Assembly (NCBI GenBank): GCA_038087875.1
Contig: JAXLNO010002078.1
Span: 62,001-126,000 of the forward strand
Direction: 5' to 3'
From: Malacoraja senta
Taxonomy: Eukaryota
DNA: 64,000 bases
Shown: piece after piece, positions 1 to 38,929 of the stretch
Numbering within the stretch: the stretch's first letter is position 1
How the letters are laid out: every line of letters begins with the position of its first letter
Position numbers and translations under genes: made by a program
The notes under the pieces: generated by a model
What the model was told of the DNA's origin: nothing
The model's database searches: none
What the model saw: only the letters and a program-made list of their open reading frames with translations

Positions 1-3
1 TAA

Positions 4-621
4 ATGAAAGAAGAAATTACAAACTCTGTTCATGAAGTGTTGGAAGCCTGGAAGATAACAATGGAAGAAAATCTTACTCTACAGATCGAAGAGGTAAATG
101 TTAAAATAAATTCGATGGAATCCAGCTTTAATTCTAAGTTGGATACCATCATCCAGACATTAAATCAACAAAATACAGCTATAACTCAATTAGAGGATAT
201 TGCTGAGACAGTTGCCGAAACTACAAAAAAGCTTCTCTCCGAGAACAAGAGTTTATCAGACTCATTGAGTAAAATAACTGAAAAATGTATTGACTTGGAG
301 GGACGTCAGAGACGACAAAATTTAAGAATTGTGGGCGTCCAGGAAGGCAGAGAGGGGAGCCGTGACCTCCGTGAATTTTCTGCAGACTTATTACAAAAAG
401 TCTTAAATCTTGATCAAAAACCCCTACTAAGTCGGGCACACAGAGCACTGGGACGCCGCCCAAGGGCGGACGCCACCCCAAGACAACTGATAGTGAAGGT
501 GCAATATCGCCATGTTTTGGATAATATGATGAAGAAAATCGTTCGCAACAGAGATCTCCTATTTGAAGGAGACAAGATCAGTATATTTAGAGATTATCCT
601 GTGGAGGTCACCAGGAAGTGA
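4..621 (+). pseudogene. L1 ORF1p (coiled coil + RRM), premature stop
   Basis: LEGRQRRQNLRIVGVQEG, RAHRALG and ISIFRDYP motifs; ORF1-like sequence continues past TGA 619-621 with a frameshift. Confidence 0.9.
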
Positions 622-799
622 GCGCTGTTTACAGAGACAAGAAGAATACTTAAGAATATACAAGATCTGAGATTATGGACTGATGTATCCCGCAACACTG
701 AGTTACCTACAAGAGGAAGGAATATTTCTTCACTGACCACAAGGAAGCACTTGATTTTGCCCTGGACATTGAGAATAACACCGATGATTGAACAATACT

Positions 800-1158
800 T
801 GTGAGATTCAAAATCACAAACGCTTTTAGAGACAATGTCGGCAAAGAAGCTTTTTATTCAAATCATATTCTGCAGAATAGGTGCCTCTCCTCTGATGTCC
901 CCTAGAGGCACACCGAGGATCGGGATGTCTTCTATCTTTATACATTTCATGGGTATCATTGTCACACCCTCATCCCTCCCCATTGTGCTTCTTCCAATCA
1001 TAACATAAAGCCCACATTCCCACGAGAACGTCCTGGAACGTCCACCCGACGTCAAAGACACCTCCCATATCATGCATCGCATGTGCATTTAAATGGGACA
1101 TCTTGTCATAGTGGGTTCTTGTCTAAATCAACTTATACCTATTAACCCCTTCCTCACA
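800..1158 (-). repeat. ERV 3' LTR (internally deleted by ~171 bp)
   Basis: Direct repeat of 6114-6655; preceded on the minus strand by purine-rich AAAAGTAAAAGTGTGGAT (PPT-like). Confidence 0.9.
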
Positions 1159-1273
1159 ATCCACACTTTTACTTTTGCTACTGCAATCTTTGATTTAGAC
1201 TATCTGCCCCTTCTCTAATGCTAGCAGCAGAATCTTCGCCTCCTTATCTTCCTCTCGCTGGTCATACTTTGTT

Positions 1274-1790
1274 TTAAATAGGCACAGCAACCCCATCATA
1301 ACTACCACTGATGTTAGGGCTGATGTAAAGATGTGCTTCCATTTCCCAAACCAGGAGTCTAGCGGTCCAGGAGGTGTCTACTCCGGAGATCTCGGGCAAT
1401 TCGATAGACAGGGAGGTGAGACCTGCTAGGGCTCTCGATACTGACCCATCAGGAGCAGTGTTGTTGGGGATGAAGGTGCAACATTGTTCCCCAAACATTA
1501 CACACACCCCTCCCTTCTCAGCCAGTGGCATGTCTAAGGCCATGCGATTTTGCCAGGCCATTAGGCTGGTATCTGTCAGTTGTTCCGCTAATCCTTCAAC
1601 CGCATCTCGAGTGTAATTTATAAAGCGTTGTTGATTGTAGTATAGGTAGTTGATCCAGTCCACATTTTTATTAAGTGTGGACCACCAGAAGAGTATGGAC
1701 TCAAAGCCCGCAGCTATCTGGTTTCTGGCTTTGAATTCATCGGGTACCCCTCTTGGCACCCCTATCGCATCTATATATATGTGTGTGTTG
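1274..1790 (-). pseudogene. env: ERV env TM subunit
   Basis: IGVPRGVPDEFKARNQIAAGFES, immunosuppressive domain WQNRMALDMPLAEKGG, CX6CC (CVMFGEQCC); the membrane anchor is in a shifted frame. Confidence 0.9.
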
Positions 1791-2124
1791 AAGTGTCTGT
1801 CCTTCGGCCCTTTGTATTGTTGTTGCTAGCCGGGAATAGGTAATGATAACTCTGGCAGGTCGCATCCTTTGGTAGGATGGAATTCGTGAATAGCTGTAGT
1901 ATACATGACATAGCCCCAGGTGTCCTATCCCAATTCAAGGGAAATGGTTCTGGAACCAGCTGAGGCTTAGCTCCGGCACAGGCGTAGCAATTGGTGTGTT
2001 GCATACTCCTGGCCGTGTACATCATCCAGGCAAGCCAGGTGTTGGCTCCCTTCCCTCCTGTAGGTATTCCCTCCTCATATAATTGCCTTAATTCTGTTTC
2101 TCCTGCTACTATCATTATCTTCAA
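1771..2124 (-). pseudogene. env: ERV env SU N-terminal fragment
   Basis: NTWLAWMMYTA..NCYACA (CxxC) segment typical of fish ERV env; most of SU is deleted. Confidence 0.75.
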
Positions 2125-2252
2125 ATCCTTAGGCTCATTCTCCCTGTTCTATCTGCACATATCCAATACCTACCACTTTCCTGCATTTGAACACTCTGTA
2201 TGCTTACATAGTTGGGTAACCACCCAACACACGACCCACCAACACGAAATCT

Positions 2253-2501
2253 TCATTTTTCCCGCGGGTTCTTGTTAAATATTAAAGTCAATGGTTCCTC
2301 TCCTTTGCGCACAGTCCACGGGCTGATATTGTTTGGTGGGGCCTCCACAGGTCCCTTAAATCGGCTTGCGTGTGTCCACCCTTTTTCTTTTGTTCGTACT
2401 GCTGTCTCGGTGATTAGTAACACCAGGTAGGGTCCAGTCCACTTAGGTTGCAGCTTTTCTTCCTTCCATGATGTTACAAGATCCCAGTCCCCCGCTTTCA
2501 C
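2253..2501 (-). pseudogene. pol: ERV integrase C-terminal domain
   Basis: KLQPKWTGPYLVLLITETAVR..WTHASR motif. Confidence 0.85.
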
Positions 2502-2649
2502 AGAATGGTTGGAAAGTCGAGATGGGGACTCTGTGCCAGCAGCCCCTTGGTTCTTAATTCTGTAATAGAACGAGATACTGCCAGTAAATAGTTCCTTAGG
2601 AATACATCATCCCCTTGTATTTGTTGGGACCCCTTCTATCTTTCCTAAA

Positions 2650-3601
2650 TAATAAAGACCTAACTTGTTCAACCTTTCTCTGTGTCTTAGTTGCTGAAAC
2701 CCAGTCAACATTCTAATTGATCTCCTCTGTACTCTCTCTATTTTGTTGACATCCTTCCTATAATTATGCCTACCAAAATTATACACCATACTCCACAATT
2801 GACCTCACCAATACCTTGTACAATTTAACATTACAACCCAACTTCTATACACAATGCTCTGATTTATAAAGGCCAACACACCAAAATCTTTCTTTACCAT
2901 CCTATCTTCATGAAATCCCACCTTCAGGGAACTATGTACAGTTATTCCTAGATCCCTCTATTCAACTTCATTCCTCAATTCACAATCATTTACCATGTAC
3001 ATTCAATTTTGATTTGTCCTGCCAAGATGTATCATCTCACACTTATCAACATTAAACCTATCTGTCATGTTTCAACCCATTCTTCCAAATGATCTAAATC
3101 TCTCTGTACACTTTTAAAATCTACTTCATTATTCACAACACCACCTATCTTAGTATCATCTACATACTTATTAATCTATTTTACCACACCAACATCCAGA
3201 TTATTGATTCACATGACAAACAACAGTGGACCCAACAAACATCCCCGAGGTACCCTTCTAGTCACTGACCTCCAACCTGACAAACATCCATCCACTATTG
3301 CTCTCTGACATCTCCCATACAGCCACTTTTTAATCCATCTTGCTATTCCTTACTAACCCTTCTTAACCAACCTTATTTCCTTATTGAACCTTGTCAAAGG
3401 CCTTACTGAAGTTCATCTAGACAACATCCATCACTTTACCCTCATCAATTTCCCTAATAACCTTTTCAAAAAATTCAAGATTAGTCAAACATCACAATCA
3501 CAAATCCATGCTAATTCTTCCTAATCCTACCCTATTTATCCAAATTCTTATATGTTGTCTTAAGTATCCTTTCCATTATTTTGCCCACCACTGATGTCAA
3601 A
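2650..3601 (-). mobile_element. CR1 RT fragment embedded in ERV pol
   Basis: Collinear with the CR1 at ~25320-26300 (NYRKDVNKIERVQRR..RERLNKLGL) but heavily substituted. Confidence 0.88.
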
Positions 3602-3875
3602 CAACGTTCTTGTTCAAACTCTACTCTTTTCTCACATCTTTGTCCTCCTGTTCACTTACCTCAGGGCTATTATCTATTCGTACCTGCGGGACAGCCCTCA
3701 GGTATTATTGAAATGGTACCAGGTATATCAACATCGGTCGGTAGTTTAGAAAACTCATACATACACCTTGTCTTCAGGTTTAAAGGGTCCTTCCTCCTGG
3801 TCCACCTCCAACAGCTTTTACTTTTCCTGTTCATAAATAGACTTGTATATCATAATTAACTGTTTCATATACTTT

Positions 3876-4190
3876 TTAAATTCTATCTTTAACTGTTCCA
3901 AACTCGGTCTCTTGTAGGGACCTCTCCATTGTGCCACCTGCTCGGTTAGTTTGCATGCAACATCTCTTCAGTGCCAATGGCAGGGCATCGATCCAATTCA
4001 ACTTTGTAATTAAACAAATCTTATTTATATTAACCTTCAATGTTCCATTTATTCTTACATACCCAAATGTGTATTTTACTCTAAGGGTCTCTATCGCCAA
4101 CTTAGCTACTCCCTAAATGAAAACAATCCGTTGTCAAAGCTGATTTCTGTAGGTCTACCAAACCTCTAAATTACCTTATTCATCATAAAC
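3876..4190 (-). pseudogene. pol: ERV integrase core fragment
   Basis: RFGRPTEISFDNG..RINGTLK..WIDALPLAL. Confidence 0.8.
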
Positions 4191-4649
4191 GACACTACAG
4201 GGCTTATACCAAATCTAGTCTGAACTATATCCTGCCTTTAAATCCCTTTCTCTCTTGGGGACCCCAGTCCTGTTAGGGCTTATATCCAGATTAATTTCAC
4301 TCCTGATAGGACCTTTTGAGGAAACGTACCCCAAAGACATTCATTATTGGCATGTAATTCTCTGGCCCTGCTTGGTTCCGTCATAGGACTCACTTAGGTC
4401 CATTGTTTATTGACAACTCCTCCTCCTGCTGGTTTGCAAGTCTTTTTCCTATCTTTGCGATATTTCTCGACCGCAGAGACCAACTGTTCGCTGAATCTGC
4501 TTGACTTTAAGAAGAATGACATCCACCACAGTAGTTCATAATATAATGTTCATCAATCAACTCTCCACCTTTTCAGCTGGTTTTCCAGATAGGCTATTTG
4601 CCTTTCCTTCTTGTGTATCTCCCCTTTGTTCCTTGGGGTTCCTCTTAAG

Positions 4650-5200
4650 TGGGTAACATTGTCTGAGGGTCTGCCATACCCTCTGCCTGACTGTGTCAAA
4701 CAGTATGCCATTGCTTGTTACATTGTTCGCATCAGTTTATACCATCCATCTTCAGTAGTTCTGTCACTTTAGTGGTTCCTATCACTTTTACCAACAGTGC
4801 CTTCAAATCTTCCATGATCAATAATCGTCCCACGTTCTCCTCCTCCAAAGCCCTAATCCATTTCCTCCCCCATCAGGGATATAGGGTGAGGTATTTTTTA
4901 GCCCTTTCAGTTTATGGGTGCCCCAAGGGATAATCCGTGTCTGTCCTTCTCTTTTCTCTTTAAAGCAGTCTCATCACTTTATCCCAATGCTTCCAACTTT
5001 AATCCTTTCTGGTATGCCTTCTTTCTAATTCTAAACTCAATTTCTTGCTTCTCAAATATTCTAGCCTCCTTGCAAAAATCTTCCACTGACTCCTCCTGCT
5101 TTATTACTTTCACGCCTGTTGTTTTCCTACTTCTGTTATCTTCTAACTGCCTCTCTCTCCTTTCTTTCTAAACTTGAATGTTTACCAATTAACTTATTTC
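4650..5200 (-). pseudogene. gag: ERV gag remnant
   Basis: Degraded frame reading WIRALEEENVGRLLIMEDLKALLVKVIG, resembling fish ERV capsid; many stops. Confidence 0.55.
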
Positions 5201-6090
5201 CAATTATTTCAATCCATATTCACCACAATTTTAAATGTCCAATTCCTAGCACTAGTAACAATTTTCCAAATTATCTTTACTGACTAGAAATCTAAAAGAA
5301 CATCAGAAAAACCAAAAGCTGGTTTCACAACTTCCCCTTCTAGGTTAAGGCCAACAAACAATTAATCGTTATCTTACAGCTGTTCGTCGCCTTTCACCAT
5401 GACCTGATTTATTTAAAGGAACATGCACCTACCTACAGTGAACATTTTTGATTTTAATAAAACTTACTTACTTACTCTTACAATGTGGTCTACAAATACA
5501 ATAAACAAAATAATTATCACATATATAAACTTCCTCCTTCATTCCCAACCGGTTTTTACACACAAATCACATTCGTTCCATTCTTACTTCAAATAAATGC
5601 AACATCTTTTACATGTATTAAAACTCAATATAACAGAATCAAATCATTTTTGTCTTCTATAATCCCTGGGTATTTCTCTGCCCCCAGAGGCTCAGCATTC
5701 GCCCCAACGGACTATCAGGCAGAATGCGGGGTCGGGCTTACTGCCCTTCCCCTCCCTTTTGGGCTCTCCGTTTTCATTGCCCATCCTCCCGATCGGAATT
5801 TCCCCCCGATCTTCCTCCCGATCGGAATTTCCCCCCGATCTATTTGCCCCCGATCTATTTAATCGCCCGAGTAGTACTTAATAGTCAGTTTTCTTACCCG
5901 GGTCTTGTGCACAAGAATCACTCGATTTGGCTCCTTCACGATTTCCAACTACTCCCACTTCTTTGCTGAGTCTCTGTTCAGGGATACCACTCGCCCAAAC
6001 CGCTGACGACAATCTAGGGGTCTGGGACCGCTGAAATCAACGGGGTGCACCGTCCCTTCTTCCGTATACCGTCGTCAGCCGGAGTGGGGG

Positions 6091-6108
6091 TCCCGAGACA
6101 AGCCCCCA
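6091..6108 (-). promoter_or_regulatory. Primer-binding site, tRNA-Pro-like
   Basis: TGGGGGCTTGTCTCGGGA just 3' of the 5' LTR; close to the tRNA-Pro PBS TGGGGGCTCGTCCGGGAT. Confidence 0.8.
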
Positions 6109-6113
6109 AAAAT

Positions 6114-6655
6114 TGTGAGATTCAAAATCACAAACGCTTTTAGAGACAAAGTTGGCAAAGAAGCTTTTTATTCAAATAATATTCTGCAGAACAGGTGCCT
6201 CTCCTCTGATGTCCCCTAGAGGCACACCGAGGATCGGGATGTCTTCTATCTTTATACATTTCATGGGTATCATTGTCACACCCTCATCCCTCCCCATTGT
6301 GCTTCTTCCAATCATAACATAAAGCCCACATTCCCACGAGAACGTCCTGGAACGTCCACCCGACGTCAAAGACACCTCCCATATCATGCATCGCATGTGC
6401 ATTTAAATGAGACATCTTGTCATAGTGGGTGTGTGTACATATTCATGTAAGTTCATTGACCATGCGCACAGAGTGTTTCTTATGACCCTTACCCTAGTTC
6501 TATCCTGGACGGTCTCCTTATCTTCTCTGTTCTCATCCTTGAAAAAGTCACCATCTGTACTCGTTCTTCACTCCCCCTATCCTCCCTACTATACTCCCTA
6601 CTATACAAAGGGTTCTTGTCCAAATCAACTTATACCTATTAACCCCTTCCTCACA
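6114..6655 (-). repeat. ERV 5' LTR (542 bp)
   Basis: TG...CA ends with inverted TGTGAG/CTCACA; adjacent PBS and TSD. Confidence 0.92.
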
Positions 6656-6854
6656 ATACTCAACACCCACCTGACGTTACCGGACGGACATCGTTACCTC
6701 ACAGAGAACAAATGGAACTTTAAATTGTTTTACTTAAGGACTAATGAAAGCTGATAATGATAGTCGAGCAAGTTTTTTTTATTGCTATTGATATATAACA
6801 TTTATATTTTAGTACTAATTACTACTAATTATGATTACTAATTATTGCTAATTA

Positions 6855-7637
6855 TAGCAATGTTACAAAATTTTGAGATTTAAAAAATAAAGTCTGCAAT
6901 TTATCCCATCAGATAAAGCATAAAAAGAAGTTTAATTTGACACTTAATTCACTTTCATATCTTCAGTATTAAAAAAGTTATGGCCATTATCATACTCAGA
7001 AATTAGCATCTAGTTCCCTATTGCTTTTCCATTGACTTAACACAAAAGCTGTGATCGAGGACAGTTAAAAGCCCATAACTTTCTTAAAAATTATGGTAAC
7101 TGAAAGAAATTTTCAGGTATTATAGATTGAAGCATTCTGAAACAAATATGAAACAATCTTACTTCGAAGACATGAAAGTAAAGCATATAATTAGTTAGTT
7201 ACCTAATTGTAGCTAATTACAAAATTCAATTACTAGATCTAAACATCTATCAATTTCTTAAGAATAGATTAACATTTTTAAATAGCCTAAGTGTCCAAAT
7301 AACATTCACACAATAATTCACAATATAACATAATTTTTAAATCTAATTTTCATGAATTTACAGGCCAAATGGAAGGAATTGAATGTTTAATACCTGTAAA
7401 TTAATGGGGATTTAATTCATCTTGCGAGTGAGAATTTCTGGAACGCGATCTTTTGGAACGTTCATTTGCGGTGAATTTAACCCCGTATTGGCATGAAAAA
7501 TACTGCCGTTAATTCGGGGAATAAAATCACCGTGTCGCATGACAAAATGTGAATTAAAGGCTTCTTAAGAAGCACTTTTATACATTTAAAGAAAGCACTT
7601 TTGTTTACCTGTCCATTGTGTGAAATCCGTCCCCGTT
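6855..7637 (+). mobile_element. Truncated non-autonomous DNA transposon (same family as 44688-45728)
   Basis: Starts TAGCAATGTTACAAAA; near-identical to the reverse complement of ~44945-45728; absent from copy B. Confidence 0.85.
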
Positions 7638-8286
7638 ATTTTTTTATACTGTTGACCAATTATCGATTCATATTTTTTTAATATGAGACTAATATTTTAT
7701 CTTGAGAATAATAACTTTTTCACTAACAGATTATAAATATTTTGGACCTAAAAATGTCTTCCCCCTTCCCTACAAATTGTTATTATTGAAACTTTTTTTA
7801 AAGAAAAGCATGGAGCTGGTATTATTATTTTTTTTCCAAAGGCTACGGAAGTCCTTAGAAGCCACATTAGTGTGGCTATCACTAACTACACCAACTATAG
7901 ATGTAGTTTTTTCTCTTCTTTTACACTTTATTAACCATTTATTCTTTCACCTTTTTATATTTAAATCTTTTTATTTGAATTTCACGGCAATTTACAAACA
8001 TACAATAATAACAGACAGTAACAATCAAGGCATAATTGTACAACAGTATGTAAGCGATCCTCAAAACCCTTACCCTTACCCACCTTCAACCCACCCAAGT
8101 CAGGTCGGAGCCAAACGGGGACAAACAACACTCACATACGTACACATCCACACACAAATGGTGGAATAACAAAATGTGCTATATAAAAATTTAAAAATAT
8201 ATATATATATCTAAATAAACAATTGCAGGGAGGGGGGGATTAAGGGAAAAGCAGCTGCAGTAGAACAAAACGATGATGGAGAACAC

Positions 8287-11200
8287 TCAGTCCTCTTCCG
8301 AGTCCGGGGACAAGGTAAGAGAGTTAACCAGTTCAAAGAAAGGGTTCCATGTATCTAGGAATGTCTTGGTAGAGCCTTTGAGAGAGAACCTAAGTTTTTC
8401 AAGTTTCAGATTGTAAATCACCTCCTTAATCCAACGGGCGTGTGTCGGGGGACAGGTAAGCCTCCAACTAAGCAAGATCAGTCTCCGGGGCTAACAAGGT
8501 TGTAAAAGCTAGGACCCGTTTCACCGCAACAGAGAGGTTAGTATTGGGAGGGGTACCGAAAATAGCTGACATTGGATTTGGAAGAATAGTCTGGTCGTAA
8601 GCTCTGCTTATCAATTCAAAAGCACTCCTCCAAAAGGCTGCTAGCTTAGGGCAAGACCAAAACATGTGGCTATGGTTGGCAGGAGATTGACTACATCTGT
8701 TACAGGTGTCATTAACAGCTGGGTACATTCTAGCTAATCTTGCATTTGTGTAGTGGACTTTGTAAAGGAATTTGCATTGGATTAGGCCATGACGAGCGCA
8801 TATGGAAGAAGAGTGGATCAAATCCAAGGCAGAGTCCCATTGCTGGTCTGTTAATTTCGTATTCAGCTCTCCCTCCCACGCAGCTTTTAATGAGGTATGA
8901 GGTTTCAATAAAACCGACCCTAGCAAATTATACAAAATAGAGATGCATTTCTTCCGATTGGGGTCTAAAGCTAAGATGATATCAGTCAGGGTTTCAGGAG
9001 GGCGATTTGGGAAGTAGGGAAATGTCTTCTTCACAAAATCCCTAATCTGGAAAAACCGAAAAAGGTGGTAGTTTGGGAGGTTGTAGTTAGACCAGAGCTC
9101 CACGAAAGATGAGAAGATGCCATCCTTATATAGGTTTTTAATACTACTGATGCCTTTGCTATGCCAGGTTTTAAATGCGTGGTCTATACTTGAAGGTTTA
9201 AAAATGTGATTTTTAAGCAGTGGGGTCAAGATGGAAGGACCCTGTAAACCGAGGTTTTTCCTAAATTGACTCCATATCTTGAGCGAAAGGGACACAATTG
9301 GGCCTGCACCCACAGATGTTATAGAAAGGGGGAGTTGGGAGCATAGGACAGACCGCAACGGGAGACGTGAACTCGCCTTTTCCATATAAAGCCAGATCGG
9401 TGGGTGCTCGCAATCATCATTCATCCAATACAGGAGTTTTTGCAAGTTAGCTGCCCAGTAGTATTGCCTAAAATCAGGGAGGGCCAAACCGCCATCACTC
9501 TTAGGCGACTGCAGTATCGCCTTTCGGATTCTGACCGGTTTGCTACCCCATAAGAATTTAGATATTGTCCTTTCTAAGTTGTCAAAAAAAGATTTGGTGA
9601 TAAGTATGGGGACATGCTGGAAAAGATACAGGAATTTGGGTAGGACAACCATCTTAACCAGATTTATCCGGCCCACGAGGGATAGCGGTAAGACTGACCA
9701 GCGATCAAAATCTTTTTCGGCTTTCTCAACCAGAGGCAAAAAGTTTGTGCGGAACATATCAGATAAGGGTATTGTGATAAAAACGGCGAGATAGCGAAAC
9801 CCATCCTCTGCCCTTTTGAATGAGGTTAAAGAGCGAGGGAGCTGCTTAGCCGGTAAGTTAATCGGTAATAGCTCACTCTTTTGGTAGTTAAGTTTATAAC
9901 CAGAATATGCACCAAACCGTTCTAAAATATTCATAATCACAGGGAGAGAACTGACTGGGTTCGAGCAGGTCATCCGCATACAATGAGACTTTATGAGTTG
10001 TGTCAAACCGTGTAATACCTTTAAAGCCCTTCTCTGCGCGTAACCAGACCGCCAGGGGTTCTATCGCGACATTAAACAAGAGTGGAGATAGTGGTACCTG
10101 TCTGGTACCTCTCTGAAGTGTGAAGTGGGGCGACAGTATGTCGTTTGTTTGTACTGAGGCCACCGGGACGAATATAATAGGCTCACCCAGAGAATAAAAC
10201 TGTTTCCGAGGCCAAACCTATCCATCGCCTCATATAGGTACCTCCACTCGACCCTGTCGAAGGCCTTTTCGGCATCGAGGGAGACCACCATCTCCGGGGT
10301 CTCATTACTCGAAGAGTGAATGATGTTAAGGAGACGCCTAGTATTATGGGAAGACTGTCGGCCAGGTACAAACCCTGTTTGATCCAACGAGATAATAGAG
10401 GGCATCACTCGTTGAAGACGAAGCGCAAGGGCTTTAGAAAGGATTTTGAGGTCCACATTCAGTAGTGAGATTGGTCTATAGCTACTACAAAGCAGGGGAT
10501 CTTTCTCCTTTTTAAGAATTAGGGAGATGGTAGCCCACGACAAGGTGGGCGGTAGGCGACGATGTAAAAACGCCTCATTGTACATATCTCTCAGGACTGG
10601 TGCGAGGAGGTCAGAGAAAGCTTTGTAATATTCTACAGAGAAGCCGTCAGGGCCGGGTGACTTTCCGCTTTGCAACGATGTGATGGCTGCTTGGACCTCA
10701 GCTACAGTTATGGGACCACCCAAGTCTCTCATGGCTTCTTCGTCAATTCGGGGAAGCGTCATACTGCTGAACATGTCACCTGCAGTGGGCGGACAGTCGG
10801 AAGTGTATAGTTCAGTGTAGAATTTAGCAAATGCTTCATTAATTCTGCGAGGATCAGTATGAGTCTCCCCTGAGCTGGATCTAATGGCTGGAATTAGCCG
10901 TGAAGTCGCCTCTGTTCTGTCCTGATGGGCCAAAAGCTTTCCAGCTTTATCCCCAGATTCAAAAAAGTGTTGCCTAGATTTAAGCAGTCGTAGATTGGCT
11001 TTATTAATGGATATGAGGTCAAAGTCTGTTTGTAGCCTAAGGCGTTCTCTATAGAGATTAGGGTTTGGGTCAGATGCATATTTGTCATCAATGTCCTTTA
11101 TTTTTTGTAACAGATCTGCCGTTTGGAACGTCTCGGTTCTTTTCAGGTTGGAGATAAAGGAAATGAGTTAGCCCCTAATATAGGCTTTTGAAGCTTCCCA

Positions 11201-12052
11201 AAGTATACCTCTTTCTATGTCCGGCGAGTCATTCAGCTCAAAATATAGGGTGATTTGGGAGTGCAAGAATTGCATGTATTGAGCCTCTGCTAATAATGAG
11301 GAGTTGAACCTCCACTTAAAGGGGTTAGTTCGTTTACGAAAATGAAGATCAAGGGAGGTCGCAGCATGATCTGATATAACGATGCTATGGTACTCACTAG
11401 ATTTGATTTTGGAAAGCAATCTATTATCTAAGAGAAAGAAGTCTATACGGGTAAACGTACGATGTACGTGGGAGAAAAATGAAAATAATTTAGTCGTGGG
11501 GAATATAAATCTCCATGGATCTGTAAGCCCCAGTTGTTTGGCAAGAACATGCACAGTCTTACCGGATTTAGTTAAAGTAGAGGCTTTATTCGAAGATCTA
11601 TCCAGTATAGGATCTTGGACCAGATTAAAGTCTCCACCCACAATGACATGGTGATTTTCAATATTTGGGAGAGATGTAAAAAATTTAGTTATAAATGAGC
11701 TGTCATCCCAGTTGGGTCCATAAATGCTTGCCAATATGACAGGTGTGTCTTGCAATTTGCCCGACACCATGACAAAGCGACCAGCAGGGTCTTCCACAGT
11801 TTTCTGTGGTTCGAACTTAATGTTCTTATGAATCAGGATAGCCCTATTATTACATTTCGAGTGAAATAGTTGACTAATCCAGCCTCTCTTAAGCCGTGTT
11901 ACCTCTCTGTTGCGAAGGTGGGTCTCTTGGATGAAGAATATATCACCTTTCAGCTGTTGCAAATGGGCCAAGATCCTATCAGTTTTGGTAGGACTTCCCG
12001 TCCCTCTCACATTCCACGAGACAAATCTAAGAGTATCGTTTGTGTTGGCCAT
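8287..12052 (-). pseudogene. L1 ORF2 (APE endonuclease, RT, C-terminal CCHC), with a few stops/frameshifts
   Basis: SWNVRG, GGDFN, SRIDFF-like and SDH EN motifs (11168-12052); PGPDGF, YRPISLLN, LDAEKAFDRV (10061-10933); LYADD; CNRC..HMFWSC (8468-10006). Confidence 0.92.
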
Positions 12053-12131
12053 ATTTAGCTATATGGGTAATGCGCTGTAGTTCTGCAAAACGAGACGGAA
12101 GAGCGCATCGAAGCCAGCTGCCGAGAGGGGG

Positions 12132-12380
12132 NNNNNNNNNNNNNNNNNNNNNNNNNNNNNNNNNNNNNNNNNNNNNNNNNNNNNNNNNNNNNNNNNNNNN
12201 NNNNNNNNNNNNNNNNNNNNNNNNNNNNNNNNNNNNNNNNNNNNNNNNNNNNNNNNNNNNNNNNNNNNNNNNNNNNNNNNNNNNNNNNNNNNNNNNNNNN
12301 NNNNNNNNNNNNNNNNNNNNNNNNNNNNNNNNNNNNNNNNNNNNNNNNNNNNNNNNNNNNNNNNNNNNNNNNNNNNNNNN
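12132..12380. other. Assembly gap (249 N)
   Basis: Run of n, bordered by a G run and CACACACA. Confidence 0.99.
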
Positions 12381-13299
12381 CACACACAGCAAACAAGTGG
12401 AACACATATGATTTAACCATCTTTCAAACCTGAGACTCCAGACCTGAGATCCCCCATGACTCAACTGAACCTTAAGTGCCCATTGCACCAAGGTGCGTTG
12501 TCCTCGCTTCCGCATGGAGATATCCAATCTTAACTCCTTATATCACCGCTTCCCAAAGCGACGGTCACTCAGTGTCGATAAGATAACATGAAGTAAAATA
12601 AGTATAGTAATAGTAATAATGACGATGATGATAAAAATTTGAAAAATAGAGAGTAGGAATAAAGTAAGATAAACATACATTGATAAATGCAAAGTTAAAA
12701 TAATAACCATAATGGTTGCACTGCCAGTACCATTGCTAACACTAATAGTAATAATAGCAATGATGATAGTCACAATAAGACAAAGCATATTAACAAAATG
12801 GTGATAGTAAATAAACCGGCTAACGTGTAAGTGGATCCGGAATAACTTCCTTTGGTGTTACATAGTATGTCTTAAAATCGATAAAGTATAAAGAGAGAGT
12901 TGGCGTTGGAAAGGTTAGCAAATTACAAACTGGGCTGTTGGATTAAAGCACAGCGCTAAAGGCATCAATTATGTTTTGTTAAACAAAAAAGGTATAAGAT
13001 AAGATTTATATAACACCGCCCTGGCTGTAATGAGCTCTTATCAGCCCCAGACAGTTCGTTATGAAGATTAGTATAAGCAAACTAGCCAGGTGTTGACAGC
13101 GTTAGCGGGCAGCTGTGAAGAACAGGAAGGCAGAGACCAAATCACAAACCACAAAGTGGGTCCTTTGAGCCCAGTTTTATAGCATATGCTGGTGAGGGAC
13201 CCCTCAAGTATGATTACACATAGACAATATAAGAAAAAGTTAGTATAAAATATTCGCAAATCCTGGTGATTTCTTACCAGCCACATACATTTTGAAACC

Positions 13300-14052
13300 G
13301 GGGTCTAGTATAATCAGCAATGCTGAACGCTAACCATAGCTAGTTATTGGGAACAGTCAAGCTAAAGTTAGTCCATGTAACCATAGATTAACCGGGCCCC
13401 TGTGCCACTCGAATATAGACGTACTGAACGAAGTCAGTCATCTGTGGGTCCCGGTCTGCGTCGATGGTAAGATGAGATGAAATCCTGAGCGTCCTCAGGA
13501 GATGTTAGTCATCGCCTCTTTCCCTCCCCGGACACTATGGACGCAGATCACAACTGCTCTGGGTTTTTCACCAGGGCTTGGCTTGGCTGTTAGCGTACGG
13601 TGGGCTCGGTCTAGCTCCGGGGCTGATTCCAGTATGTGTTTGCCAAGAGTCTCGAGCAGAAGTTGAGAGAAAAACGCTGTTGTTTGGGAGCCCTCGATAT
13701 TCTCGGGAAGACCCACTATCCTTATGTTGTTTCGGCGACTCCTGACTTCCAGGCCGATAAGCTTAGCCTTTAGCTTGGCGTTCTCTTCGGTCACCGTAGT
13801 TAACATTAACGTTATAGCTCGTGATAGCGGCAAGAGACTCTAATGACGAGAGACGGTGTTGGTGGTCTAACATAGTGGTCTGGATATTGTCCAGCTTCGT
13901 TTCCAATTTGGTAACGCAGTGTTGAATTCTGCCAGTAACGATACCTTATGTTCTGTTATCATGGCTGCTAGCGTGGCCGTCGGGTCTTCTGTCTTTTGCT
14001 CCGCTTTCTTTCCTTTGTTTGGCATCTTTACAATGTAGAGAGGTACTGACAA
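13300..14052 (-). pseudogene. L1 ORF1 of the inner L1, frameshifted
   Basis: LEVRSRRNNIRIVGLPENIEG..LDRAHR. Confidence 0.85.
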
Positions 14053-14259
14053 TGATGTTTAAATGTTTGTGGGTGGTTAAAAAACTTAGACTGAGCTGTA
14101 ATAAAAGTTGGAGGTGAAAAGGTCGGGAGCGTGGAAAAGTGCGACTACTCCAACATGTCGCCCCCACCGGAAGTCTCTTTCACCTTTTTTACTTTATACC
14201 ATATTATAATTTTAATTTTGAACGGAATTATAAGCTTACAGACACTGTATATGTATGCT

Positions 14260-14911
14260 TTTACTCAACAGAAACTGCCAGAAACTTTAAACGAATCTAC
14301 AATAACACTTATACCAAAAACAGATAAGGACCTTGAAGGCATAGGTTCATATAGAGCAATAGCTCTCTTAAATACTGATCAGAAAATATTAACTAAAATT
14401 CTAGCACATAGATTAAGTTTAGTGATTAATAAATTAGTACACCCCGACCAAACAGGTTTTATTCCAAAACGATACTCATCTTATAATTTGAGACGATTAT
14501 TCAATATTATATATTCAAATAGAATTGCTAATGTAGACCTAGTAATCATTTCGTTAGATGCTGAAAAAGCATTTGATCAGGTGGAATGGCCCTATCTATT
14601 TTCGGTGATGGAAAATTTTCAACTGGGCGAGAAGTACTGCACACTCTTATATACTAACCCAACAGCTAGAAAATTAACAAACCAAATGGTATCAACTAAA
14701 TTTAACTTATCTAGAGGTTGTAGACAAGGATGCCCGCTATCTCCGTTATTATTCGCTCTCGCTATTGAACCATTAGCAGAAAGTGTTAGAGCCCATCCAG
14801 AAATATACGGGTATAATACCAAAGACACAGTGAATAAAATGTCTTTATATGCAGATGATGTATTAATATACATTAGAAACCCAGAAACTAGCATTCCAAA
14901 CCTATCCAAAC
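14260..14911 (+). pseudogene. Outer L1 ORF2 RT fragment (endonuclease region apparently deleted)
   Basis: SYRAIALLNTDQKIL, SLDAEKAFDQVEW, GCRQGCPLSPLLF, LYADD. Confidence 0.88.
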
Positions 14912-14938
14912 AGGGCAGTTTACTGTTCTGGATGTCAG

Positions 14939-15825
14939 ATGTGGGAAGTCATGGAGTCTGATAGCCCTCCAGACGTCCACATCTGCGCCAGGTGTATCGA
15001 GATGGGGCTCCTAATGGACCGTATTAGGAACCTGGAGCAGCAGCTCGATGACCTCCGTCTGGTCAGGGAGAGCGAGGAAGTCATTGAGAGGAGTTACAGG
15101 GATGTGGTCACTCCAACACCACAGGAGGCAGGCAAGTGGATCACGGTTGGGAGAGGCAAGGGGCACAGGCAGGGACTAGAGCTGTACACCTTGACAATAA
15201 GTACTCCTGTTTGAGCACTGTTGGGGTGGACAGCCTACGTGGGGGTAGCGACAGCGGCCGGGCCTCCGGTATAGAGACCGGTCCTGTTGCTCAGAAGGGT
15301 AAGGAAAAGAAGAGGAGGGCAATATTAATAGGGGACTCTATAGTTAGGGGGTCAGACAGGCGATTCTGTGGACGCAGTCGGGAGACCCGGATGGTAGTTT
15401 GCCTCCCTGGTGCCAGGGTCTGTGATGTGTCTCAACGTGTCCAAGACATCCTGAAAGGGCAGGGAGAGGAGCCCGAGGTCGTGATACATATAGGTACCAA
15501 TGACATAGGTAAAAAAAGAGAAGAGGTCCTGAAAGGAGAATTTAGGGAGTTAGGAGGGGAGTTAAAGAGAAGGACAGCAAAGGTAACAATCTCGGGATTA
15601 CTGCCTGTGCCACGCGACAGTGAGAGTAGGAATGGAGCGAGGTGGAGGATAAATGCGTGGCTGAAGGACTGGTGCAGAAGGCAGGGATTCAAATTTCTGG
15701 ATCATTGGGACCTCTTTTGTGGAAGGTTCGACCTGTACAAAAAGGATGGGTTGCACTTGAACCTGAGGGGGACTGATATCCTGGCAGGGAGATCTGCAAA
15801 GGCTACTGGGGAGACTTTAAACTAG
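14939..15825 (+). pseudogene. CR1 ORF1: zinc finger, leucine zipper and SGNH esterase
   Basis: CSGCQMW..HICARC; LIGDSIVR, VVIHIGTND, DGLHLN; one frameshift near 15180. Confidence 0.88.
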
Positions 15826-16129
15826 AATGGTTGGGGGGGAGGGACTCAAATAGAGAATGCTATTAGACAGTGTGTGAGGCAGGAGGCAGAGAAGGAAAGC
15901 ACTCAGACCCAACATGTAGGGGGGGAAGAAGAAAACAATAATAAACAGAGAATAAGAGGTGGTGGGGTTCTTAAATGGGTGAGCAGAGAAACAGAGGGGT
16001 GTAAAATGCGGGCGGAAGCAATAGGTAGCAAGGTGAAAAGTAAAAGTGGCAGGCAGACAAATCCAGGGCAAAAATCAAAAAGAGCCACTTTTCAACATAA
16101 TTGTATAAGGGGTAAGAGCGTTGTAAAAA

Positions 16130-18943
16130 CAAGCCTGAAGGCTTTGTGTCTCAATGCAAGGAGCATTCGTAATAAGGTGGATGAGTTGAACGTGCAGATA
16201 GCAATTAATGATTATGATATAGTTGGGATCACGGAGACATGGCTCCAGGGTGACCAAGGCTGTGAGCTGAACATGCAGGGATATTCAATATTCAGGAGGG
16301 ATAGAGAGAAAGGAAAAGGAGGTGGGGTAGCGTTGCTGGTTAGAGAGGAGATTAACGCAGTGGAAAGGAAGGACATTAGCTTGGAGGATGTGGAATCGGT
16401 ATGGGTAGAGCTGCGAAACACTAAGGGGCAGAAAACGCTGGTGGGTGTTGTGTACAGGCCACCTAGCAGTAGTAGTGAAGTTGGGGATGGCATCAAACAG
16501 GAAATTAGAAATGCGTGCAACAAAGGCAAAACAGTTATAATGGGTGACTTCAATCTACATATAGATTGGGTGAATCAAATTGGCAGGGGTGCTGAGGAAG
16601 AGGATTTCTTGGAATGTATGAGGGATAGTTATCTAAACCAACATGTAGAGGAACCAATGAGAGAGCAGGCTATTCTAGACTGGGTATTGAGTAATGAGGA
16701 AGGGTTAGTTAGCAGACTTGTTGTGCGTGCCCCCTTGGGCAAGAGTGACCATAATATGGTTGAGTTCTTCATTAGGATGGAGAGTGACATTGTTAATTCA
16801 GAAACAACGGTTCTGAACTTAAAGAAAGGTAACTTTGAGGGTATGAGACGTGAATTGGCCAAGATTGACTGGCAATTAGTTCTAAAAGGGTTGACGGTGG
16901 ATATGCAATGGAAGGCATTTAAAGACTGCATGGATGAACTACAAAAATTGTTCATCCCAGTTTGGCAAAAGAATAAATCAGGGAAGGTAGTGCATCCGTG
17001 GATAACAAGGGAAATCAGGGATAGTATCAAAGCAAAAGATGATGCGTACAAATTAGCCAGAAAAAGCAGCATACCAGAGGACTGGGAGAAATTCAGAGAC
17101 CAGCAGAGGAGGACAAAGGGCTTAATTAGGAAAGGGAAAATAGATTATGAAAGGAAACTGGCAGGGAACATAAAAACTGACTGCAAAAGTTTTTATAGAT
17201 ATGTGAAGAGAAAGAGATTAGTTAAAACAAATGTAGGTCCCTTGCAGTCAGAAACAGGTGAATTGATCATGGGGAACAAGGATATGGCGGACCAATTGAA
17301 TTAACTACTTTGGTTCCGTCTTCACTAAGGAAGACATAAATAATCTGCCGGAAATAGCAGGGGGCCGCAGGTCAAAGGAGATGGAGGAACTGAGTGAAAT
17401 CCAGGTTAGTCGGGAAGTGGTGTTGGGTAAATTGAATGGATTAAAGGCCGATAAATCACCAGGGCCAGATAGGCTGCATCCCAGAGTACTTAAGGAAGTA
17501 GCTCCAGAAATAGTGGATGCATTAGTGCTAATTTTTCAAAACTCTTTAGATTCTGGAGTAGTTCCTGAGGATTGGAGGGTAGCAAACGTAACCCCACTTT
17601 TTAAGAAGGGAGGGAGAGAGAAAACGGGGAATTACAGACCAGTTAGTCTAACATCGGTAGTGGGGAAACTGCTAGAGTCAGTTATTAAAGATGGGATAGC
17701 AGCACATTTGGAAAGTGGTGAAATCATTGGACAAAGTCAGCATGGATTTACGAAAGGTAAATCGTGTCTGATGAATCTTATAGAATTTTTCGAGGATGTA
17801 ACTAGTAGAGTGGATAGGGGAGAACCAGTGGATGTGTTGTATCTGGACTTTCAGAAGGCTTTCGACAAGGTACCACATAAGAGATTAGGATACAAACTTA
17901 AATCACACGGTATTGGGGGTTCAGTATTGATGTGGATAGAGAACTGGCTGGCAAACAGGAAGCAAAGAGTAGGAGTAAACGGGTCCTTTTCACAATGGCA
18001 GGCAGTGACTAGTGGGGTACCGCAAGGCTCAGTGCTGGGACCCCAGCTATTTACAATTTATATTAATGATCTGGACGAGGGAATTGAAAGCAACATCTCC
18101 AAGTTTGCGGATGACACTAAGCTGGGGGGCAGTGTTAGCTGTGAGGAGGATGCTAGGAGACTGCAAGGTGACTTGGATAGGCTGGGTGAGTGGGCAAATG
18201 TTTGGCAGATGCAGTATAATGTGGATAAATGTGAGGTTATCTACTTTGGTGGCAAGAACGGGAAGGCAGACTATTATCTAAATGGTGGCCGATTAGGAAA
18301 TGGGGAGATGCAGCGAGACCTGGGTGTCATGGTACACCAGTCATTGAAAGTAGGCATGCAGGTGCAGCAGGCAGTGAAGAAAGCAAATGGTATGTTGGCC
18401 TTCATAGCAAGAGGATTTGAGTATAGGAGCAGGGAGGTTCTACTGCAGTTGTACAGGGTCTTGGTGAGACCACACCTGGAGTATTGCGTACAGTTTTGGT
18501 CTCCAAATCTGAGGAAGGACATTATAGCCATAGAGGGAGTGCAGAGAAGGTTCACCAGACTGATTCCTGGGATGTCAGGACTTTCATATGAAGAAAGACT
18601 GGATAGACTTGGCTTATACTCTCTAGAATTTAGGAGATTGAGAGGGGATCTTATAGAAACGTACAAAATTCTTATGGGGTTGGACAGGCTAGATGCAGGA
18701 AGATTGTTCACGATGTTGGGGAAGTCCAGGACAAGGGGTCACAGCTTAAGGATAAGGGGGAAATCCTTTAAGACCGAGATGAGGAAAAACGTTTTCACAC
18801 AGAGAGTGGTGAATCTCTGGAACTCTCTGCCACAGAGGGTAGTTGAGGCCAGTTCATTGGCTATATTTAAGAGGGAGTTAGATGTGGCCCTTGTGGCTAA
18901 GGGGATCAGGGGGTATGGAGAGAAGGCCGGTACGGGATACTGA
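16130..18943 (+). pseudogene. CR1 ORF2 (APE + RT), one frameshift near 17300
   Basis: LNARSIRNK, ITETW, GGGVA, GDFN, SDHN; KSPGPD, YLDFQKAFDKVPH, GVPQGSVLGP, FADD. Confidence 0.93.
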
Positions 18944-24899: not shown

Positions 24900-27800
24900 G
24901 GTCCAGCAAGGGAATCTGACTGAAGCTCGAACGATATAACAATTACAGCACGGAAACAGGCCATCTCGACCCTTCTACACGGGCCGAACACGTATTCTCC
25001 CCTAGTCCCATATACCTGCGCTCAGACCATAACCCTCCATTCCTTTCCCGTCCATATAACTATCCAATTTATTTTTAAATGATAAAAACGAACCTGCCTC
25101 CACCACCTTCACTGGAAGCTCATTCCACACAGCCACCACTCTCTGGGTAAAGAAGTTCCCCCACATGTTACCCCTAAACTTCTGTCCCTTAATTCTCAAG
25201 TCATGTCCCCTTGTTTGAATCTTCCCTACTCTCAGTGGGAAAAGCTTATCCACGTCAACTCTGTCTATCCCTCTCATCATTTTAAAGACCTCTATCAAGT
25301 CCCCCCTTAACCTTCTGCGCTCCAAAGAATAAAGCCCTAACTTGTTCAACCTTTCTCTGTAACTTAGTTGCTGAAACCCAGGCAACATTCTAGTAAATCT
25401 CGTCTGTACTCTCTCTATTTTATTGACATCCTTCCTATAATTAGGCGACCAAAATTGTACACCATACTCCAGAATTGGCCTCACCAATGCCTTGTACAAT
25501 TTTAACATTACATCCCAACTTCTATACTCAATGCTCTGATTTATAAAAGCCAGCACACTAAAAGCTTTCTTTACCACCCTATCTACATGAGATTCCACTT
25601 TCAGGGAACTGTGCACAGTTATTCCAAGATCCCTCTGTTCACCTGCATTCTTCAATTCCCTACCATTTACCATGTAGGTCCTATTTTGATTTGTCCTGCC
25701 AAGATGTAGCACCTCACACTTATCAGCATTAAACTCCATCTGCCATCTTTCAGCCCACTCTTCCAACCGGCATAAATCTCTCTGTAGACTTTGAAAATCT
25801 ACTTCATTATCCACAGCCCCACCTATCTTAGTATCATCTGCATACTTACTAATCCAATTTACCACACCATCATCCAGATCATTGATGTACATGACAAACA
25901 ACAGTGGACCCAACACAGATCCCTGTGGCACCCCACTAGTCACTGGCCTCCAACCTGACAAACAACCATCCACCATTACTCTCTGGCATCTCCCATTCAG
26001 CCACTGTTGAATCCATCTTGCTACTCCACCATTAATACCCAACCATTGAACCTTCTTAACCAACCTTCCGTGAGGAACCTTGTCAAAGGCCTTACTGAAG
26101 TCCATATATAAAACATCCACGGCTTTACCCTCATCAATTTCCCGAGTAACCTCTTCAAAAAATTCAAGAAGTTTAGTCAAACATGACCTTCCAGGCACAA
26201 ATCCATGTTGATTGTTCCTAATCAGCCCCTGTTTATCCAGATGCTTATATATATTATCTCTAAGTATCCTTTCCATTAATTTGCCCACCACTGACGTCAA
26301 ACTAACAGGTCTATAATTGCTAGGTTTACTCTTAGACCCCTTTTTAAACAATGGAACAACATGCGCAGTACGCCAATCCTCCGGCACTATTGCCGTTTCC
26401 AATGACATTTGAAATATTTCTGTCATAGCCCCTGCTATTTCTACACTAACTTCCCTCAATATCCTAGGGAATATCCTGGAGACTTATCCACTTTTATATT
26501 TCTCAAAAGTGTCAGTACTTCCTCTTCTTTGAATCTCATAGTTTCCATAGCTACTCTACTTGTTTCCCTTACCTCACATAATTCAATATCCTTCTCCTTG
26601 GTGAATACCGAAGAAAATAAATTGTTCAGTATCTCCCCCATCTCTTTTGGCTCTGCAGATAGCTGTCCACTCTGCATCTCTAATGGACCAATTTTATCCC
26701 TCGTTATCCTTTTGCTATTAATATAGCTGTAGAAACCGTTTGGATTTACTTTCACCTTACTTGCCAAAGCAACCTCATATCTTCTTTTAGCTTTTCTAAT
26801 TTCTTTCTTAAGACACTTTTTACATTTTTTATACTCCTCAAGCACCTCATTTACTCCATGCTGCCTATAATTATTGTAGATCTCTCTCTTTTTCCGAACT
26901 AAGTGTCCAATTTCCCTTGAAAACCATGGCTCTTTCCAATTTTTACTATTTCCTTTCAACCGAACAGGGACATAATGATTCTGTACTCTTAAAATTTCAC
27001 CTTTAAATGTCCTCCATTTCTCTTCCACATCTTTCCCATAAAACAAACTGTCCCAATTTACTCCTTTTAAATCCTTTCGCATCTCCTCAAAGTTAGCCTT
27101 TCTCCAATCAAAAATCTCAACCCTAGGTCCAGTTCTGACCCTCTCCATAATTATATTGAAACTAATGGTATTGTGATCACTGGTCCCGAACTGTTCCCCA
27201 ACGCATACCTCTGCCACCTGACCCGTCTCATTTCCTAACAGGAGGTCCAGCACCGCCCCTTCTCTAGTAGGTACTTCTATGTATTGCTGCAAAAAACTAT
27301 CCTGCACACATTTTACAAACTCCAACCCATCCAGCCCATTTACAGAATGTGTTTCCCAGTCTATGTGTGGAAAATTGAAATCTCCCACAATCACTACATT
27401 GTGCTTACTACTAATATCTGCAATCTCCTTACATATTTGGTCCTCCAATTCTCGCTCCCCATTTGGCGGTCTATAATACACCCCTATGAGTGTTGCTACC
27501 CCTTTCCCATTTCTCAGTTCCACCCAAATAGTCTCCCTAGAAGAGCCCTCTAATCTATCCTGCCAAAGCACTGCTGTAATATCTTCCCTGATAAGCAATG
27601 CAACACCTCCACCTCTTGCCCCTCCAATTCTATCACACCTGCAGCAACGAAATCCTGGAATATTTAGTTTCCAATCACAGCCCTCCTGCAACCATGTTTC
27701 ACTGATCGCCACAACATCATACTTCCAGGTGTCAATCCAGGCTTTAAGTTCATCCACCTTTCTTACAATGCTCCTAGCATTAAAATATACACATTTAAGA

Positions 27801-28720
27801 GACCCACCCTCTCTTATTCTCTGTTTATTGTCTTTTTCTTCTCTCTCCCCTACATTTTGGGTCAGAGTGCTTCCATTCTCTGCCTCCTGCCTCACACACT
27901 GACTGCTAGCTTTCCCAATTTGAGTCCCTCCCCCCAACCATACTAGTTTAAAGTCTCCCCAGTAGCCTTTGCAAATCTACCCGCCAGGATATTGGTCCCC
28001 CTCGAGTTCAAGTGCAACCCATCCTTTCTGTACAGGTCGCACCTTCCCCAAAAGAGGTCCCAATGATACAGAAACTTGAATCCATACCCACTGCACCAGT
28101 CCCTCATCCACTCATTTATCCCCCACCTCGCTCCATTCCTACTCTCACTGTCGCGTGGCACAGGCAGTAATCCTGAGATTGTTACCTTTGCAGTCCTTCT
28201 CCTTAACTCTCTACCTAACTCCCTAAATTCTTCTTTCAGCCATGATCATATTGAATGGCGGTGCAGGCTCGAAGGGCCGAATGGCCTACTCCTGCACCTA
28301 TTTTCTATGTATCTATGTAGGACCTCTTCTCTTTTTTTACCTATGTCGTTGGTACCTATATGTACCACAACCTCAGGCTCCTCTCCCTCCCATTTCAGGA
28401 TTTCTTCGACACGTTCAGACACATCCCTGACCCTGGCACCAGGGAGGCAAACTACCATCCGGGTCTCCTGTCTGCGTCCGTTCGACCAATCAGAGGCTTC
28501 CCCCACACTCCTTCTCTGGAACGTTGCAGCTGCAGATGGAACGTTGCAGATTTGGGTTCCAACGGCTCCAGGTAACTCCTCCTCGCTCCAACGGCTCCCC
28601 GGGCCTCTGTAGAAGCAAGCCCCGCGCTGTTTTTCTACTCACAGCTCCAGGTAACTCCTCCTCGCTCCAACGGCTCCCCGGGCCTCTGTAGAAGCAAGCC
28701 CCGCGCTGTTTTTCTACTCA
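24900..28720 (-). mobile_element. Near-full-length CR1 LINE, second family
   Basis: RT 25002-26459 (YMDFSKAFDKVPH, YADD), EN 26456-27937, esterase 27943-28520; tail GAGATGGCCTGTTTCCGTGCTGT. Confidence 0.92.
28565..28720. repeat. 79-bp tandem duplication at the CR1 5' end
   Basis: GCTCCAGGTAACTCC...TTTTTCTACTCA repeated at 28565 and 28644. Confidence 0.9.
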
Positions 28721-38139: not shown

Positions 38140-38424
38140 TTTTTCTGCAACTACCGGCACCCGTCATAGTCGGGTAAAATTTTCAACATGTTGAAAATCC
38201 AACGGTGACCAGAAGACTCTACGACTCTTTGGGAGACTGAGGAGACTACTCATGACCATACTGGCGACATGTCGCGGGGTGAAGCCTGTATGGTCGTGAG
38301 TAGTTGCCAAAAGAGTCGTACCTTGTTCTGGATTTTCAACATGTTGAACATTTTCGGCCACCTGTAACGACCAATGACGGATGCTGGCAGTCGTTGAAAT
38401 AGTTGCGTAAGTGGGACAGGCCCT
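38140..38424. mobile_element. PIF/Harbinger-like MITE, one end
   Basis: Terminal AAGTGGGACAGGCCCT; internal inverted TTTTCAACATGTTGAA motifs. Confidence 0.6.
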
Positions 38425-38466
38425 TGAGGAAGAGGGTCTCACATCTACTTTGCTCCTCTGTTCCAG

Positions 38467-38784: not shown

Positions 38785-38929
38785 GTACGGTGCTGGGATT
38801 CACTTTAATGAACACATCTTTTACCCCGTCACAAAATAGGGCCAGGCAAGTTTAGCACTGAAGGACAGGTGTTGCAGTGTGTGAGTGAGTGAGTGATAAC
38901 CAAGAGGCCTAGACTAGGGTCAAGAAGAG

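Follow-up and report, generated by a model that had tools for sequence, protein, structure and literature searches.

Going by the accessible portions of the published accounts, three described systems come closest to the element examined here. Recombination between retroviruses of unlike age is known from recKoRV, the KoRV-PhER recombinants in which a defective provirus joins a younger retrovirus to an older, degraded one (PMC6112702). In LTR elements edited by APOBEC enzymes, G>A changes on the sense strand are clustered and are transitions only, and C>T, which is more than tenfold rarer, serves as the negative control (PMC4866542). Non-LTR elements show family-specific strand bias that mutation of the resident copies does not explain (PMC7140322; PMC9099904), and one of these studies states that the cause of strand bias in transposable elements (TEs) is open, that resident copies mutate symmetrically, that reverse transcriptase (RT) error is unlikely and that selection is favoured (PMC9099904).

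The window analysed here, a stretch of 64,000 nucleotides from Malacoraja senta, contains on its minus strand an endogenous retrovirus (ERV; 800-6655) that carries a piece of a CR1 element as a passenger. The paired LTRs (800-1159 and 6114-6655) have TG...CA ends, and the target site duplication (TSD) ATACT is present on both sides. The ERV is a defective three-part recombinant, consisting of a decayed retrovirus (part A), a piece of CR1 RT, and the integrase tail and env of another retrovirus (part B), and very probably belongs to a multiplied, non-autonomous hybrid whose cytosine loss arose in its source lineage. The features needed below are:

795-799 (left) and 6656-6660 (right), no strand: TSD ATACT
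800-1159, minus strand: 3' LTR (TG...CA), with about 180 nt missing relative to the 5' LTR
1162-1177, minus strand: degenerate stretch like a polypurine tract (PPT), a candidate by its position
1274-2207, minus strand: part B env, internally deleted, with a TM remnant (1274-1825) and an SU remnant
2253-2646, minus strand: part B integrase, second half, frameshifted (MLVIN_C, E 1e-8)
2647-3602, minus strand: CR1 ORF2 (RT-domain) piece in ERV sense orientation, without the CR1 3' end
3603-4375, minus strand: part A integrase, broken, of a different ERV lineage, extending to its own tail
4376-5810, minus strand: part A upstream region, heavily decayed and C-poor, gag-like by position only
5811-6108, minus strand: leader (C 21%), with a stretch like a primer binding site (PBS) at 6090-6108
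6114-6655, minus strand: 5' LTR
25002-27976, minus strand: near-intact free CR1 ORF2, the reference copy, open across the compared stretch
32649-32962, plus strand: second free CR1 copy, used for assigning changes to branches
57547-63573, minus strand: duplicate of the ERV insertion, with identical TSD and flanks and 20 differences in 4946 interior bases

Read in three frames, the CR1 piece is flanked upstream by an integrase with its own tail and downstream by a second, unlike integrase tail followed by the deleted env. The integrase-tail region is therefore present twice with unlike sequence, and the parts come from two different retroviruses; none of the top eight A-type homologues matched part B at E<1e-3. 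The nearest homologue of the part A integrase is a stingray protein (P0126; 54-65% identity), and protein homologue searches found none closer than about 55-65% over long stretches. This nearest homologue and the types of repeat present suggest a cartilaginous fish as the host. Pfam gave no meaningful match for part A translated with X at stops, and no match for 4376-5810. The TM remnant of part B matches TLV_coat (E 2e-6) and is at most 84% identical to a database env. Both the PBS candidate, which may be tRNA-Pro-like, and the PPT candidate are in the expected place and degenerate. Searching the ERV by tblastn with two pol-bearing homologues (E<0.5) found no retroviral protease, RT or RNase H, bearing out the claim of the initial annotation that the interior lacks protease and RT; usable protease, RT, RNase H and integrase are all absent, the last being present as broken pieces only. 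The CR1 piece contains nine stops and several indels, and since its alignment ends about 320 bases short of the ORF2 stop and the CR1 tail is missing, it is not an intact LINE insertion.

The second ERV copy, at about 57.5 kb, shares its TSD and flanks with the first, which rules out a second transposition; having been duplicated with its flanks, it leaves a single insertion event in the window. The segmental duplicate itself spans 1-7777 and 56748-64000 at 99.3-99.5% identity and includes the ERV together with the L1 ORF1 remnant that the ERV interrupts. An immunoglobulin C1-set exon is encoded at 38403-38855 (plus strand; Pfam E 1e-19), and the 57-kb duplication may be a duplication of an immunoglobulin cluster. 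The LTR pair differs at 6 of 359 sites in copy 1, whose 3' LTR has the deletion of about 180 nt, and at 6 of 530 in copy 2. The LTRs are thus few substitutions apart, as had been claimed, but the integration is "recent" only in relative terms, as 1.1% divergence would translate into about 25 My if the rate that the accessible part of PMC4422223 assumes for sharks is applied. The joint of the LTR deletion in copy 1 lies at 1113-1116 with a four-base overlap, and the copy 2 LTR retains the roughly 180 bases. A 786-base element of very high depth occurs at 6855-7640, in copy 1 only, and as a 99.6% identical inverted copy 37 kb away (44943-45728); it is a very young insertion. Also present in the window are nine copies (20627-53992) of a 91-base SINE-tail-like repeat (family D5), a long low-complexity tract of pyrimidines only that adjoins a CR1 piece (34620-35860), and a run of N at about 12130-12380 that appears as X in the ORF at 12027-12542.

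Aligned to the free copy at 25324-26302, the CR1 piece (2647-3602) shows 85% identity, and changes were counted in element-sense orientation from the free copy to the ERV copy. Changes had occurred at 46 of 106 sense C, compared with 31 of 283 G, 16 of 287 A and 21 of 275 T (Fisher, C vs. G, p=1.2e-11). This upholds the strand-directional change claimed in the initial annotation, and the three 10-mers that it had quoted as examples were found, letter for letter, where it had placed them. The changes at C comprised 22 C>T, 15 C>A and 9 C>G, each above its complement (p 9e-4, 1e-4 and 5e-5, respectively), with 46 C lost and 9 gained, while changes at A/T sites were symmetric (A>G 7/287 vs. T>C 7/275). 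The asymmetry persisted when columns near gaps were removed (C 44/102 vs. G 30/265), and the loss was even along the piece, with between 8 and 11 C changes per 200-base bin (five bins). CpG decay is ruled out as the cause, as C>T was found at none of the seven CpG cytosines. The direction is opposite to the G-to-A signature of APOBEC3, as had been pointed out previously (G>A 22/283 vs. C>T 22/106), and APOBEC G>A editing is ruled out by these counts, by the 24 transversions among the 46 C changes and by the even spread. Synonymous changes numbered 26 against 25.5 expected under neutrality, and codon positions were hit 38, 39 and 34 times; the differences, with nine stops, thus ignore the reading frame and arose after coding constraint had ended.

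Use of a third CR1 copy (about 290 sites) assigned the loss to the ERV branch, where C had changed at 10 of 31 sites and G at 2 of 84 (p 3e-5), against 2/31 and 1/31 C on the two free branches. Changes at sites other than C numbered 10/259 on the ERV branch and 7/259 and 4/259 on the free branches. Loss on the ERV branch is therefore C-specific, with non-C change at most about twice that of the free branches and C change five to ten times, and the description of the passenger as far more diverged than its free relatives needs the qualification that the excess is mostly C loss. Seven free branches, pooled at non-CpG sites and omitting an eighth from a distant subfamily, were symmetric (C 23/602 vs. 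G 39/1344, p 0.33), and the 20 changes since the duplication follow base content, 7 involving C at about 740 C sites and 10 involving G at about 1330 G sites. Counting substitution types against free CR1, as the initial annotation had proposed, hence gave an asymmetric spectrum for the ERV-borne piece and a symmetric one on the free branches, and both data sets agree with its premise that resident copies show no such strand bias. The C loss belongs to the source lineage and not to resident copies. Public contigs show that, of 13 listed sites, the free reference copy agrees with the family letter at 12, and at the thirteenth (2982) the family letter differs from the reference, giving one additional sense-C loss. 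In six comparisons between free CR1 copies or subfamilies, changes were concentrated at third codon positions. Subfamily mismatch is ruled out as the cause by this third-position bias between free copies, by the codon-position neutrality and nine stops of the passenger, and by the reference carrying the family letter at 12 of 13 sites. Two of the seven comparisons among free copies had more C out than in, namely 39805-40039 and family 2 against the 25 kb family.

The C loss extends into the upstream retroviral part and is absent downstream, which, like the three-part structure itself, the initial annotation had missed. Scoring covered the residues P, T, Q and H, whose codons must have C at the first or second position; relative to P0126, part A has lost 15 and gained 3 (p 0.008). 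The same loss was seen against all eight top homologues (11-20 out, 2-7 in), with G-coded residues balanced, and the direction was the same for all of the 12 further listed homologues, although part A homologues are not mutually independent. The P/T/Q/H share of part A (0.125) is below that of all 18 control homologues (0.149-0.247), and 3 of 18 homologue-homologue controls reached an imbalance of twofold or more. Part B shows no such loss (14 out, 23 in vs. P0002). Sense C is 21% in part B (21.6% in its integrase at 2253-2646, with a GC skew of 0.08), 13% in part A (13.4% over 3603-5810) and 7% in the CR1 piece (7.2%, with a GC skew of 0.60); GC skew is 0.45 in free CR1, 0.32 in part A and 0.08-0.11 in part B. 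C loss is thus seen in the parts whose sense strand is rich in G and poor in C (CR1 and part A), and not in part B, whose sense strand is balanced. Because part A and CR1 share the loss and part B does not, the process acted on an A-CR1 ancestor, and mostly before the last recombination and the amplification; most likely, part B joined after the C loss.

The window also holds two near-intact CR1 families (15088-18943, plus strand; 25002-27976, minus strand), and in one of them ORF1 encodes a GDSL esterase. Each family has a C-poor sense strand, the depletion being greater in the 25 kb family (122 C out and 70 in), and C occupies 7-12% of fourfold sites in the four CR1 ORF2 halves. L1-like and Rex-like ORFs, named from their translations alone (8468-12058, minus; 14095-14961, plus; 42988-43725, minus; 48708-49904, minus), lack this depletion of sense C; no skew is seen in the L1 and Rex-like ORFs, and five of six have 26-38% C at fourfold sites.

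Contigs from 6 of 24 runs, none of the 24 being of RNA, which carries no information about expression, were compared with the window (X1-X5 and X7; five organisms, five studies), the best-matching run possibly being the window's own source. Summed contig depth is not copy number, as overlapping short contigs inflate it. Depth over the ERV interior outside CR1 was 25,000-133,000 in X1, 2,300-18,500 in X2 and 3,600-112,000 in X4, compared with a locus level (site 7726) of 203, 56 and 122, respectively. Contigs across the LTR-flank junction had a depth of 325 (X1) and 48 (X2); with both these and site 7726 at low depth, amplification together with the surrounding segment is unlikely. A likeness of 95% excludes the free CR1 copy for contigs of at least 50 bases, and at this likeness the depth at two ERV-specific indel sites was 40,777 (X1), 17,746 (X4), 194 (X5) and 25,478 (X7) for 3358, and 38,864, 23,690, 1,708 and 9,594 for 3380. 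Depth of ERV-type CR1 was close to that of the flanking ERV bins in X1, X4 and X7, cover in X5 being patchy; it occurs in contigs of four organisms, about 100-fold above locus level where measured. The A-CR1 junction is bridged by one X7 contig (3560-3635), and the CR1-B junction by none among the contigs listed. In X2, which was read fully, window-type letters stood at 137-188 times locus level at 9 of 12 tabulated CR1 sites (one of them 74), and at the other three the window letter was at about a tenth of family depth (two sites) or at locus level (one), the remainder at tabulated sites possibly including third letters. At least four sites with another letter are listed at 95% likeness; as that table misses the nearly private site 2917, it is not taken as proof of fixation. 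X3 is shallow, with no cover in 4 of 30 bins, and one of its contigs runs from part A, at the CR1 junction (3595), into 255 bases that do not resemble the window; this contig may represent a copy that lacks the passenger or carries a different insertion.

With depth read as an order of magnitude, and no second flank or TSD seen, these data point to tens to hundreds of copies, most of which include the passenger; the organisms concerned number at least three, and probably four. The ERV is likely a high-copy non-autonomous family in which most C loss predates the spread, as judged from depth rather than from other insertion sites directly seen. An ordinary CR1 insertion decaying within one provirus is rejected, as the CR1 3' end is missing, the decay is asymmetric and the derived letters stand at family depth. 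The suggestion of a non-autonomous, multiplied ERV with a CR1 passenger is therefore supported by depth. We found neither a symmetric spectrum, nor a junction confined to this locus (other sites again being represented by depth), nor gene conversion of the LTRs.

As to the cause, we tentatively favour damage to cytosines of the sense strand while it was displaced during transcription of the source copies, at a probability we place somewhat below even. A 5'-truncated CR1 would have inserted into ERV-A directly behind the integrase, and the A-CR1 lineage would then have lost C from a sense strand that was under no coding constraint and already rich in G and poor in C, a composition that favours R-loops. 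Deamination, uracil removal and error-prone bypass could yield C>T, C>A and C>G, since uracil excision followed by error-prone bypass gives rise to transversions; plain deamination gives mostly C>T, yet 24 of the 46 C changes are transversions. The exposed non-template strand is known to undergo deamination, and GC skew has been linked to R-loops (accessible portion of PMC10030826). The skew of part A may itself be a result of the loss and not its cause. A template switch onto ERV-B RNA, close to where CR1 ORF2 ends, would have removed the CR1 tail and added the 3' half of B. The breakpoint and microhomology were read from motifs only, because the parent of B was not found, and likeness across both junctions of the CR1 piece is imperfect. 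The hybrid would then have multiplied, presumably mobilised by the proteins of a helper virus, and this copy would have integrated and later been duplicated with its surroundings. Among the 12 listed family-variable ERV sites outside CR1 (from 40 of 243 entries), a single one is a candidate sense-C loss; this suggests that the process has ended or is now weak, as would equally be expected after a burst. Two C losses inside CR1 (2796 and 2960) still vary among family members.

An origin at the RNA or RT stage over many cycles, by damaged or edited C in packaged RNA or by misinsertion opposite C during minus-strand synthesis (e.g., at low dGTP) and fixed in each round, agrees with the specificity for strand and lineage, with all three outcomes of C in little context, and with the losses at 2796 and 2960 that are still variable. 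However, thousands of cycles should probably have left more non-C changes on the ERV branch than are seen (10/259, against 7/259 and 4/259 on free branches), C loss is absent from part B, and L1 and Rex-like elements also pass through RNA yet are not C-poor; we regard this origin as unlikely, though its probability is not negligible. That there are hardly any extra non-C changes is better explained by a lesion process specific to C than by the repeated RT cycles or editing to which the initial annotation had attributed the pattern. Selection on the RNA, in which C-poor, weakly pairing genomes are better exported, packaged or tolerated and any base other than C is favoured among co-packaged defective copies, would explain why any base replaces C (22:15:9) and why both CR1 families in the window are C-poor at fourfold sites, and the available text of two studies argues that selection rather than mutation governs TE composition (PMC9099904; PMC7140322). 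It would, however, need about 35 separate sweeps of small effect, evenly spaced within 960 bases, and part B has spread within the same RNA with normal C, which makes it improbable.

A deaminase of the AID type might have struck the sense strand of a single ancestral copy in one or a few bursts, transversions being made by repair as in antibody hypermutation; this would account for derived letters that mostly appear family-wide and for the little continuing bias outside CR1. The deaminase-motif context that had been suggested for examination gave a mixed answer: C>T occurred more often at cytosines that follow a purine (18/62 vs. 4/44, uncorrected p 0.015) and ranged from 11/36 at WRC down to 1/21 at SYC, but WRC was not enriched over all C changes (p 0.21) and the other strand has a mild purine-C preference too. 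Tandem substitutions are a feature of shark antibody hypermutation, and the CR1 piece shows no clustering and no tandem excess (15 adjacent pairs vs. 13.6). Such a burst is likewise improbable, if anything slightly more so than selection on the RNA. If the ancestor had long been resident in the antisense direction within a host transcription unit, or at a site replicated in one fixed orientation, repair of G lesions on the host template strand would be expected to act in the same direction; the effect is, however, four- to fivefold without any A>G/T>C asymmetry (7/287 vs. 7/275), and decay is symmetric in free copies of both orientations and at the present locus, so that this origin is very unlikely. 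Least probable of all is that the CR1 enzyme, engaging the former CR1 tail, copied the A-CR1 transcript with a CR1-specific error bias. The direction is that of CR1's own fourfold sites and differs from L1, Rex-like elements and part B, but depth equal to ERV depth leaves no large free pool with derived letters, and LINE-type copying of an LTR element drops the LTR promoter after one round.

It is possible, at a probability a little lower than that given to the displaced-strand lesion itself, that active retroelement lineages of this host group undergo an undescribed mutational process, the reverse of APOBEC editing, in which sense-strand C is replaced by any other base, that this process made the CR1 families C-poor, and that the hybrid ERV family, spread over several species, is its dated, neutral recorder. 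In that case the ERV-CR1 passenger would be a neutral record of how mobile elements gain strand bias. The passenger has a known start, no coding role, many copies and several hosts, so that substitution in the source lineage can be measured per branch, and such measurement would separate mutation from selection. No prior description of such an element or signature was found by title or abstract in the literature, the scope excluding subscription papers, Repbase/Dfam and supplements, and the ERV-CR1 family may already be in a repeat library.

Compared with known systems, the ERV resembles recKoRV in its defective join of young and old retroviruses, its TSDs and its probably many copies, and breakpoints of recKoRV can sit at microhomologies (PMC6112702). 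It differs in that a LINE piece bridges the breakpoint, showing that such a piece can bridge ERV-ERV recombination, in the unrelated viruses and host, and in its presence in several organisms rather than as a polymorphism among individuals, as far as seen. Strand-biased C loss is likewise not reported for recKoRV in the accessible text of PMC6112702. Of the recKoRV feature of younger sequence at both ends, the 3' side fits; the leader has a B-like C content (21%), and no 5' breakpoint was located. The nearest proteins are from fish and elasmobranch ERVs, with no KoRV or PhER sequence, so the ERV works alike but is not a member. Among these proteins no named ERV family was matched, and the TM of part B env is 77-84% identical to the env of P0002, P0003 and P0004. 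With APOBEC-edited elements it shares a strand-specific excess of substitutions in an ERV lineage, but here sense C is lost, evenly and about half by transversion; sense-strand C>T, the negative control in ERV-editing screens, can therefore be a real lineage signal. In strand-biased non-LTR elements the end state is seen in coding elements and its cause is open, whereas here the change has been caught in a non-coding passenger with a known start.
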